Source: a virus
Lineage: Duplodnaviria > Heunggongvirae > Uroviricota > Caudoviricetes
Length of the DNA stretch: 47,006 bases
Strand: one strand, 5' to 3'
IMG/VR virus record: IMGVR_UViG_2925903241_000004
The position numbers and the translations under genes were made by a program. Below, piece by piece: positions 43,463 through 45,735 of this stretch. Under the pieces are notes generated by a model that saw only the letters and a list, made by a program, of their open reading frames with translations, had not been told where the DNA came from and did no database searches. Position 1 is the first letter of the stretch, and each line of letters opens with the position of its first letter.

Positions 43463-45735
43463 TGAGTAGAGTAAGAGGCAGGGCGTAGTCGGACTATTTC
43501 CCTGCCTCTCCTCCCCGAACCGGACGTGCACCTTTCAGCGCATCCGGCTCTCCATTTAAATGCTGGCGAACGCCATTGCCACTTCTGTAAAGCGCGATGT
43601 ATACGTGTTTCTGGTCTCCGTCCTCAGATAGGGATTACCTTCGGGTAGCCGCCAGCGGAACAGCTTCTTGCCTTGCCCCACCAACCGGTACAGTATTTCG
43701 CCGCTGAGCTTGCCGTGATTGGTTTTACCAAATAAAACCCACGTTTTGCTCTGACCCGGTTTCGGTGATTTACACCACCACCTCATCAGGGAAGCGATAC
43801 CTGTACGGTATTTGCGGGCCAGCCAGTGAGCCAGCTTCCAGAACACGACACGGTCGATATAACTGAAGACTTTGGCCTTAAAATCAACGAACTGATAGAA
43901 CATGGCCCAGCCTTTCAGTTTTCGGTTGAGTTGTTCAGCCATATCGACTTTGCTTTCACTGTAGTTGCCTGATAACAGTGCTGTCAGCGATGCGGCGAAG
44001 TTTCTGGCTTTCTCCTGCGGGATCGTTGAGACCACTCGCATCTCGCCATAACGACTGCGTTTGCGAATGATCCTGTGCCCCAGAAAGATAAAGCCGTCAT
44101 TAACATGGGTGATTTTAGTCTTATCCATGTTCAGCCTGAGTTTCAGACTGCCTTCGAGCACACCCCGACACTCCTCCCTGATGGCTTCCGCCTGTGCTTT
44201 GGTGCCTTTGACGATGAGGACAAAATCATCGGCATAGCGGCAGTACGCCACCGCGGGTTTCCACTGCCAGTTTTCTCTGACCGCCGTACTTCGGCCCCGT
44301 TGGATACTGTTATTCCAGTACCACCGATCTTTTCTGGCTTTCCCGCTCAGGTAGCGCTCATGCAGGTATTGATCGAACTCATTCAGCATGATGTTCGATA
44401 ATAGCGGCGATATAACACCGCCCTGTGGCACACCTTCACTGGCCGCCCGAAAGAGACCGACATCGATATGTCCCGCCTTGATGGTTTTCCACAGCAGAGT
44501 CATGAAACGTGCGTCACTGATCCTGCGGCGTACAGCCTTCATCAGCAGTCGATGATGTACGGTGTCGAAGTAACTGGACAGGTCGCCTTCAATCACCCAG
44601 CGTCCCCGGGTTTCACCACAGTCTGTGAGCTGTAATTTCACCGTGCGGATCGCGTGGTGGACACTGCGCTCAGGCCGGAAGCCATATGAGAGCGTATGAA
44701 AATCACTCTCCCATATCGGCTCCATCGCCATCAGCATGGCCCGCTGAACAATACGATCCCGCAACGCGGGGATACCCAGTGGTCGCAGTTTGCCGTTGCT
44801 TTTAGGGATGTAAACCCGTCTGGCGGGCAAGGGCTGGTAGTGGCCTGAGAGTAATTCATCCCTGAGGATTTGCAGCTCAACAGCCAGTCTGGCCTGTAGC
44901 ATTGTTTTGTTCACGCCATCAACGCCGGGGGTATGGGCCCCCTTTGATGAAAGCGTGATCCGCGCCGCTTCAGCCAGCCATTCTGGTTGTGTTATCAGAC
45001 GCAGCAGCCGTTGAATCCGTAGGGACGGATCGGTGACTGCCCATGTGGCAAGCTTGCGTTGCATTTCGCTGATTATCAAAGGTCTTCACCTCGTTAGGTC
45101 AGTTAATTCACGTCGCAAACACATTCAAACTGCTTCCCTTCGCCATGTAATGGGCTTTCCCCATCGCGGACTACTACGGAAGCTCCGCCAGCCAGCGCGT
45201 CATCGGAGCCATGCCCCCTTAACATCCGTCGCTGACCTTCCCCGGTTTACCTGCCTGGACTCAGGCATACTGAGGAGGCTGCCCGTCGCACTCTTTATCC
45301 TTGCTTGCCGCAAGTTGGCAGAAGTCAGCAACGCAAGCGTGATAGACGCTGCTGCCCCGGTGTTTCGCATACATGTCAAAACACCTTCGACCGGCAGTGC
45401 TTACGTATCACTGCCAGTTCCTCCTGCACGGCCTGTCAGATCACGTAGGCCGTGGTGACGTTTTCAACCCACAGAGGCGGATTAACGGGTTCATGTTCTT
45501 CAGCCTTTCAGTACTTAACCTTGAGGATCATCTCGGCTTAGTGATCTCGCCTCAATCCCCGTTGTCAGCGGGTTACATCACCCTGCGGGCATGCCGCAGG
45601 TCACTGCCGCTCAGGTTCTCCACCGTCACACCCGGTGGGATTGTTGGGTTTCTCATCGTGAGTTACCGGCTCAATATTCCAGACAGACTCGCGGTTCATT
45701 TAAGCATCCATGCCCGCCCTGAACTCCGGGCACAC
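43463..45735 (-). mobile_element. Group II intron (bacterial, with intron-encoded reverse transcriptase) inserted in IS orfB
   Basis: On the minus strand the element starts GTGTG right after codon ...DFTY+G and ends ...CTAC; a domain V-like hairpin GAGCCGGATGCGCTGAAAGGTGCACGTCCGGTTC lies just 3' of the RT ORF; removal restores a continuous OrfB frame ([21 protein letters not shown]). Confidence 0.8.
43556..45079 (-). CDS. Group II intron-encoded protein (reverse transcriptase/maturase)
   Basis: 507-aa ORF with RT-like blocks (e.g. YADDFVL) and a C-terminal maturase-like region; probable TTG start at 45079 (GAGGTG 7 nt upstream) or ATG at 45064. Confidence 0.9.
   Translation of the reverse strand: MIISEMQRKLATWAVTDPSLRIQRLLRLITQPEWLAEAARITLSSKGAHTPGVDGVNKTMLQARLAVELQILRDELLSGHYQPLPARRVYIPKSNGKLRPLGIPALRDRIVQRAMLMAMEPIWESDFHTLSYGFRPERSVHHAIRTVKLQLTDCGETRGRWVIEGDLSSYFDTVHHRLLMKAVRRRISDARFMTLLWKTIKAGHIDVGLFRAASEGVPQGGVISPLLSNIMLNEFDQYLHERYLSGKARKDRWYWNNSIQRGRSTAVRENWQWKPAVAYCRYADDFVLIVKGTKAQAEAIREECRGVLEGSLKLRLNMDKTKITHVNDGFIFLGHRIIRKRSRYGEMRVVSTIPQEKARNFAASLTALLSGNYSESKVDMAEQLNRKLKGWAMFYQFVDFKAKVFSYIDRVVFWKLAHWLARKYRTGIASLMRWWCKSPKPGQSKTWVLFGKTNHGKLSGEILYRLVGQGKKLFRWRLPEGNPYLRTETRNTYTSRFTEVAMAFASI

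Follow-up and report, generated by a model that had tools for sequence, protein, structure and literature searches.

RmInt1, a group II intron of Sinorhizobium meliloti, splices from the transcript of its host insertion sequence (IS) and retrohomes through pairing between its exon-binding sites (EBS) and the intron-binding sites (IBS) of the target, without second-strand cleavage; in introns of this kind, the intron-encoded protein (IEP) of which has no endonuclease (En) domain, synthesis of complementary DNA (cDNA) is primed at replication forks. E.c.I4 is an intron of Escherichia coli, reportedly listed in the Zimmerly bacterial group II intron database and said to feature in the work of Dai and Zimmerly of 2002. 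In this study, we analysed a stretch of 47,006 nucleotides (nt) of viral DNA (Caudoviricetes; IMG/VR record IMGVR_UViG_2925903241_000004), hereafter the window, in which an earlier reading, made from the sequence alone, had recognised a group II intron that looked intact and lay in sense within the orfB transposase gene of an IS. The core of that sequence-only reading is right. The region is very probably a full-length copy of E.c.I4, inserted in sense into orfB of IS629, and the IS629 lies in turn within a tail-fibre gene of a lambdoid prophage.

Copies of E.c.I4 were listed by coordinate by Leclercq & Cordaux in 2012, who described target sites at specific positions in IS629, IS911, ISEc16 and ISEc31 and a recent proliferation in several strains, the strain-specific copies being <1% diverged and therefore attributed to recent independent proliferations (PMC3522654). 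Toro & Martinez-Abarca placed E.c.I4, together with S.f.I1, in the open reading frame (ORF) class A, without an endonuclease domain; this class was described in 2013 with 'three almost identical members', and the database rule for naming a copy is >95% nucleotide identity to a named one (PMC3552965). S.f.I1 is the near-identical Shigella counterpart of E.c.I4. The intron in the window is identical at 2266 of 2270 nt (99.8%) to the published copy E.c.I4-2b of strain E24377A (NC_009801 4848623-4850893, 2270 nt; L005), which exceeds the naming rule. It shares with E.c.I4 the length, the IEP (WP_001189123.1), the class A affiliation without En and the class of home site, i.e., an IS3-family transposase gene, including that of IS629. 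We noticed no substantive difference between the two; the IS629 in the window cuts a tail-fibre gene and has a private 1-nt deletion in orfA. Matches to the intron were found in 2346 of 5426 E. coli genomes, at up to 20 places per genome, and many of these copies are 100% identical to the intron in the window and annotated as ltrA inside an IS3 transposase. As the Rfam match described below has an E-value of 1e-10 and thousands of near-identical copies are annotated as ltrA, the recognition of the intron is far beyond chance. The finding is thus already known, as a catalogued element at a documented home site, with a IIB-like ribozyme and an IEP of ORF class A. In some genomes the E.c.I4 copy is itself cut by IS421, an IS4-like element (e.g., NZ_CP028578.2 1909219-1912838), so that three levels of nesting are seen.

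The intron and the exons on both sides of it are as follows.

43466-45735, minus strand: group II intron E.c.I4, GUGUG...CUCUAC, with 4 differences from E.c.I4-2b
45736-46153, minus strand: 5' exon of orfB with HTH_21 (Pfam E=5e-19), ending ...GAT TTT ACT TAC G
45741-45736, minus strand: IBS1, CUUACG, at the junction end of the 5' exon of orfB
42993-43465, minus strand: 3' exon of orfB with the DDE integrase core (Pfam rve E=8e-19, and rve_3), starting TC AGC ACA TGG
43556-45064, minus strand: IEP, 502 amino acids, reverse transcriptase (RT) and maturase (X) domains, YADD at 44225-44236, no HNH/En

The intron runs on the minus strand from 45735 to 43466 (2270 nt) in the same orientation as orfA and orfB of the surrounding IS629, as had been proposed. 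Its 5' end, GUGUG (45735-45731), fits the consensus GUGYG, and its 3' end, ...CUCUAC, fits AY. The GTGTG start, the TAC end and a domain V-like hairpin following the RT ORF had all been noticed by the sequence-only reading and were confirmed here, the last by a match to Rfam RF00029 on the minus strand, 4 nt past the stop codon of the ORF. The 3' boundary needs correction, since it had been put at 43463 and the interval thereby took in TCA, the first 3 nt of the 3' exon; the true end is 43466. Likewise, joining 45736 to 43462, as had been predicted, would encode DFTYGTW, and the peptide quoted in support of that junction needs 45736/43465 (a slash marks the splice junction throughout). At 45736/43465 the peptide across the junction reads DFTYVSTWRGF, and the predicted ligated exons read ...GATTTTACTTACG/TCAGCACATGG... 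(in RNA, ...UUACG/UCAGC...). The joined exons (CTGATTTTACTTACG/TCAGCACATGGCGGG) are identical across the junction to uninterrupted IS629, which bears out the claim that the junction restores OrfB, and are identical also to an intron-less allele of the same chromosomal locus. After removal of the intron, the IS in the window measures 1309 nt and differs from a canonical 1310-bp copy of IS629 (L002) by one missing C and nothing else. Precise excision of the intron restores orfB exactly and in frame.

The secondary structure was examined with relatives of the intron. A search with the IEP gave many proteins of 68-91% identity, for 11 of which the DNA was obtained; two divergent intron copies from a genome scan, L010 (89%) and L017 (92%), were added, and 14 sequences were aligned. 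More distant relatives were also sought in metagenomes, where all copies recovered were 99-100% identical E.c.I4, useful for the spectrum of target sites and not for covariation. The domains were assigned as follows.

43517-43550, minus strand: domain V, 34 nt, with AGC triad, 2-nt bulge and GAAA loop (RF00029); sequence GAGCCGGAUGCGCUGAAAGGUGCACGUCCGGUUC
43468-43515, minus strand: domain VI, with a bulged A as branch point at 43472, 7th nt counted from the 3' end; from the fold, with 9 covarying pairs
45241-45730, minus strand: domain I, closing stem of intron nt 6-10 with 491-495; from RNAalifold and pair counts in the 14 relatives
45541-45547, minus strand: alpha loop AGAUCAC, forming a 7-bp kissing pair with alpha' (helix 11)
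45438-45444, minus strand: alpha' loop GUGAUCU (helix 11)
45187-45240, minus strand: domain II (intron nt 496-549), helices 23-24, 7 of 13 pairs covarying
45132-45183, minus strand: domain III (intron nt 553-604), helices 25-27, 7 of 16 pairs covarying
45079-45092, minus strand: conserved hairpin GAGGUGAAGACCUU, domain IVa-like, with Shine-Dalgarno-like GAGG; helix 30, nearly invariant in the 14 relatives

Domains V and VI matched RF00029 at 43466-43552 (minus strand) with 64.9 bits, above the gathering score of 40 (E=1.3e-10). Their folding had been suggested as a check, and they both fold (z=-6.8 for the two domains together) and covary: RNAalifold found 33 pairs in the 87-column alignment of this part, 10 of which show compensatory change, and one pair of domain V varies among GC, UA and CG in the relatives. 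The 707-column alignment of the 5' part, covering domains I-IV, gave 159 consensus pairs, 87 with compensatory change. When the alpha-alpha' loop-loop pairing was added by hand before a direct count, 92 of 166 pairs showed compensatory change and 96.5% of the cells were paired, against 34-43% when the partners were slid by 1-3 columns; none of 500 shuffles reached the observed values. The alpha-alpha' interaction itself is paired in 100% of the cells, with compensatory changes in 5 of its 7 pairs. Domain IV consists of a stem and the conserved hairpin, which covers the Shine-Dalgarno-like GAGG directly upstream of the start codon of the IEP, and by analogy with Ll.LtrB this hairpin is a candidate for the binding site of the IEP. 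The copy in the window satisfies every helix and domain of the consensus fold.

The IEP contains RVT_1 (E=1.5e-34, residues 91-337) and GIIM (E=1.3e-10, residues 361-426) and scores 341 bits against the NCBIfam model TIGR04416, 'group II intron reverse transcriptase/maturase', of which the cut-off is 300. These were the only two domains, and neither an HNH nor a D/En domain was found in the Pfam results for the 502 residues; the C-terminus extends about 76 residues past the maturase domain. The same DNA is annotated elsewhere as ltrA (WP_001189123.1), and the closest solved structure is LtrA (5g2x, E=2e-52). Ll.LtrB of Lactococcus lactis, a IIA intron of the ML class that encodes LtrA, has the same general architecture as the intron in the window: domain IV holds the ORF, a hairpin is present at the start codon, and splicing is by a lariat. 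LtrA, however, possesses D and En domains and carries out target-primed reverse transcription after cleavage of the bottom strand, whereas the IEP in the window has no HNH. RmInt1, a IIB3 intron, likewise has an En-less RT/maturase and is housed in an IS transposase gene, that of ISRm2011-2 (in part PMC3552965). It differs in ORF class (D, not A), in the IS family that it occupies and in having defined EBS1, EBS2 and EBS3, whereas in the intron in the window we found two EBS1-like loops and no EBS2 pairing.

If the intron behaves as group II introns are established to do, its cycle would begin with the transcript of the IS, from which the IEP would be translated out of domain IV and bind its own intron as a maturase. 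The 2'-OH of A43472 would then attack the 5' splice site, the exons would be ligated, and a lariat ribonucleoprotein (RNP) would be released. Guided by the pairing of an EBS1 loop with IBS1 in the exon, the RNP would reverse-splice into intron-less transposase genes of the IS3 family. As the IEP lacks the En domain, nascent strands at replication forks would presumably serve as primers for cDNA synthesis, as they do for RmInt1, and second-strand cleavage would not take place. The steps are taken from the established behaviour of these introns, and what the window itself displays is the anatomy.

The target of such a cycle can be described precisely. The insertion point lies after the first base of the codon that follows D-F-T-Y in IS629 orfB, and all copies and relatives in IS3 elements occupy the homologous point, GAY NTN ACN TAY N/T, after D-x-T-Y. 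Three hairpins, A, B and C, emerge at a four-way junction after alpha', and two neighbouring ones among them have EBS1-like loops.

45393-45415, minus strand: hairpin A, loop ACGUAAG (45400-45406), the perfect complement of IS629 positions -6 to +1 (CUUACG/U)
45359-45385, minus strand: hairpin B, loop AUGUAUG (45368-45374), EBS1 of the clade (with the +1 partner) by covariation

The loop of hairpin B finds its best match on the host exon at -6 to +1 in 10 of the 14 relatives, and its pairing with its own target is better than permuted pairings (p=0.00015). These relatives include one outside IS3 (L024), in which loop and exon form an entirely different pair, and we regard hairpin B as the predicted EBS1 of the clade. 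With the IS911-type site, pairing is poor for both loops (-0.5 and -1.0 kcal/mol), and among metagenome copies the IS911-type sites are occupied about as often as the IS629-type ones; these sites may be recognised otherwise, or the copies in them may have been spread by transposition of the IS. The metagenome copies (L036-L115), the EBS loops of which are identical, occupy IS629-type (CUUACG), IS911-type (CCUAUA), ACGUAUA-type and other IS3 sites.

A rival assignment is that hairpin A, and not the canonical hairpin B, acts as the exon-binding site at IS629, E.c.I4 then possessing two alternative EBS1 loops. We consider this unlikely, and of the alternatives treated here it survives best. The loop of hairpin A is complementary to the IS629 site at 7 of 7 positions, and its duplex energy is -7.8 kcal/mol, that of hairpin B being -2.3 kcal/mol. 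Hairpin B matches its own site poorly in three lineages, namely the window, L021 and L035, and these are exactly the lineages in which hairpin A matches, in the same register, 7-9 bp (9 bp in L021, 7 bp in L035) from -6 to +1/+3, and the better of the two loops against its own target gives p<5e-5. Nevertheless, hairpin A shows no covariation with the target across the clade (p=0.31) and is reduced in L026 and L027 to a short stem with a loop of a few nt. Its position is moreover where IIB introns carry EBS2, the sample comprises 13 lineages only, the core of the target, UACGUA, is palindromic and inflates chance complementarity, and the frequent occupancy of IS911-type sites is accounted for by neither loop. 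That both loops are usable as exon-binding sites in E.c.I4 and its relatives is doubtful; hairpin B is the predicted EBS1 of the clade, and at the IS629 site of the present copy both loops are candidates.

Several other assignments were tried. Hairpin A was at first taken as EBS1 for its 6/6 match; the relatives then showed hairpin B to covary with the exon, so that either may be the EBS1 of this copy. The best complement to exon positions -7 to -16, AAGGUCAGC (intron 497-505), lies in domain II and is ruled out as EBS2 by its position, and two further EBS2 candidates, the GAGAUCA and GUGAUC loops, pair with each other as alpha-alpha'. G327A, one of the 4 differences from the E24377A copy, was considered as a compensatory EBS1 change for an IS911 site; it closes the stem of hairpin A and is outside the loop.

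The locus in the window exists in E. coli both with and without the intron. The intron-less allele of the IS629-bearing tail-fibre gene, with identical flanks, was found in 31 complete genomes, and in the PGAP annotation its OrfAB is intact and made by programmed frameshift (WP_151327001.1); the allele containing the intron was found in about 145 genomes. As the flanks are identical and the IS is otherwise identical, an ancestral empty site is the simplest explanation, and the intron most likely arrived at this locus by retrohoming into a resident IS629. The direction of change was judged from the two alleles and their flanks, and gain is only the likelier of the two. Alternatively, an IS629 that already carried the intron may have jumped into the tail-fibre gene as one unit of 3.6 kb, and precise loss would later have produced the intron-less alleles, for example when an intron-less IS629, or cDNA of the spliced RNA, recombined with the locus. 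A clean 3-bp target duplication flanks the composite, IS3-family elements can be mobilised in trans, and the mixed exon types that surround the intron in some metagenome contigs hint at recombination (or at assembly chimeras). We find this scenario improbable, given the 31 genomes that have the empty site within identical flanks and given that retrohoming into an empty IS629 is documented behaviour of E.c.I4.

The host element and the surrounding prophage carry the following features.

42951-46529, minus strand: IS629 (IS3 family) with the intron, 1309 nt of IS and 2270 nt of intron; matches the canonical copy L002 except for one C
46530-46532, minus strand: target-site duplication GTA, upstream copy, by direct reading of the sequence
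42948-42950, minus strand: target-site duplication GTA, downstream copy, by direct reading of the sequence
46150-46475, minus strand: orfA of IS629, frameshifted; GGGG on the plus strand at 46450-46453, where canonical copies have 5
46079-46195, minus strand: ALIL pseudoknot, programmed -1 frameshift signal between orfA and orfB (Rfam RF01497, 120.2 bits)
39661-42950, plus strand: N-terminal part of the side tail-fibre gene of the prophage, interrupted by the IS; an ORF, the orthologue of which is annotated 'prophage tail fiber N-terminal domain-containing protein'
46533-47006, plus strand: rest of the tail-fibre gene, beyond the IS in the downstream direction, annotated 'tail fiber domain-containing protein, missing N-terminus'

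The IS has the characters of the IS629 family, i.e., terminal inverted repeats (TGAACCGCCCCGGG...), a 3-bp duplication, and orfA and orfB with a -1 frameshift signal, and orthologous loci are annotated as 'IS3-like element IS629 family transposase'. The N-terminal tail-fibre ORF runs a few codons into the IS, and the prophage is probably unable to make this side tail fibre. The suggestion of the sequence-only reading that splicing could regenerate a functional OrfAB message holds for orfB, which is intact and exactly restored, and fails for orfA as sequenced. A run of five C is shortened to four (46450-46453 in the window) at codons 8-9 of orfA, so that the native frame is terminated after 72 codons and the sole open product is an OrfA that starts at Met18 and thus lacks its N-terminus; splicing would thus not restore full-length OrfAB, and removal of the intron does not leave orfA and orfAB intact. 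When the window is set against the orthologous locus of E. coli M217 (L004) over 8 kb, it shows no substitution and exactly two 1-nt deletions, one at 46449/50 in IS629 orfA and one at 46683 (run 46683-46686) in the C-terminal fragment of the tail-fibre gene, both in G/C homopolymers. None of the 173 complete genomes that share this junction of IS and tail-fibre gene carries the orfA deletion, the best match being 99.6%. In view of the homopolymer location and of the absence from the other genomes with the locus, the deletion is possibly an assembly error; that long reads miscounted the homopolymer is no less likely than a genuine private mutation of orfA. The two deletions together suggest errors of long-read assembly in the source of the window. 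If the orfA deletion is such an error, the statement that splicing restores OrfAB would hold.

On the unspliced message, the orfB frame (ORF 45671-46153, minus strand) reads 21 codons into the intron and then stops. The product of this frame keeps HTH_21 and the first catalytic Asp and loses nearly all of the DDE core. An unspliced mRNA could therefore give OrfA together with a truncated OrfB-frame protein, possibly an inhibitory derivative of the transposase. Elsewhere in the window, DicF, the sok antitoxin RNA, a tRNA and two copies of STnc100 scored above the Rfam gathering thresholds (4505-4556, minus strand; 13029-13204, 16203-16275, 16629-16822 and 17098-17286, plus strand); such matches are typical of a lambdoid E. 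coli prophage.

Several points weigh against taking the region as a complete E.c.I4 copy that is active and reached this site as proposed. We looked for a splicing or mobility experiment on E.c.I4 in the accessible literature and found none, and the activity of the intron is deduced only from conservation of its sequence and from copy-number patterns. A permissive cmscan of 43400-45800 yielded no match to any of the Rfam group-II-D1D4-* models even at E<=1, returning only the domain V/VI family, two sub-threshold plastid domain V families and a chance CRISPR-DR match, and the fold of domains I-IV rests on our own alignment of 14 sequences. With the IS629 exon, hairpin B pairs weakly, over 5 contiguous bp. 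No EBS2, as a complement of exon positions -7 to -13, was found in the loops of the intron; this does not exclude membership of group II, because IIC introns are without EBS2 (PMC3522654). Finally, the intron-less allele is also compatible with precise loss of the intron rather than its later gain, and the orfA of the host IS is frameshifted as sequenced.

Of these points, the outcome of the literature search, the frameshifted orfA and the weak pairing of hairpin B could be taken to mean that the intron is a splicing-dead passenger, which has permanently inactivated IS629 and persists by vertical inheritance or in composites of IS629 and intron mobilised in trans, and the sharing of the locus by about 145 related genomes is consistent with vertical inheritance; nevertheless, this is the least probable of the alternatives and very improbable in itself, as 100% identical copies sit at several places per genome in many strains, the strain-specific copies are so little diverged as to indicate recent independent proliferations (PMC3522654), the IEP ORF is intact, with YADD present and a score above the curated equivalog cut-off, every ribozyme motif tested is canonical, and the same locus is found with and without the intron.

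The relatives collected for the alignment also indicate the breadth of the group. Those with an IEP identity of 68-86% (L021-L035, L128 and L133) come from Legionella, Photobacterium and various metagenomes, and in most of them the insertion separates HTH_21 from rve at the same codon of an IS3-family orfB. By size, the E.c.I4-like clade far exceeds its description of 2013, and throughout the Gammaproteobacteria its home site is conserved to the codon. One relative with 79% identity is located outside any IS3, close to a gene for Rep3 replication on a contig of GCA_037199905.1 (L024/L025). In L024, the loop of hairpin B, ACCAUU, perfectly matches the new 5' exon, AAUGGU, and the loop of hairpin A is still ACGUAAGG, complementary to the IS629-type site. 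E.c.I4-like introns in IS3 were found also on a contig labelled Microbacterium tenebrionis, an actinobacterium (L010, 89%), and in a Halomonas metagenome-assembled genome (L015, 99.3%); both are likely contamination or mis-binning of enterobacterial DNA. The variant of L010 was sought in E. coli genomes and is not present there, the best match being 90.5%. In many of the metagenome contigs (L036-L115), the two exons belong to different IS types, e.g., the 5' exon to IS629 and the 3' exon to IS911; either the assembly produced chimeras across the repeated intron, or intron copies have really recombined.

In annotation, the fragments entered as two 'IS3 family transposase' pseudogenes should be treated together with 'ltrA' as one unit, an IS629 split by E.c.I4, and not as three features. 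The arrangement is a textbook nesting of a selfish element inside a selfish element inside a prophage, in which the intron, being housed in the IS, does no harm to the host, and potentially none to the IS either, as it would be able to splice out. The finding itself is no advance for the field; two small leads go past the catalogue, namely the paired EBS1-like loops and the enlarged E.c.I4-like clade. If both loops are genuinely usable, they would provide a natural route for one intron to several subfamilies of IS3 transposases, and would explain the presence of E.c.I4 in IS629 despite the weak match of its canonical EBS1.

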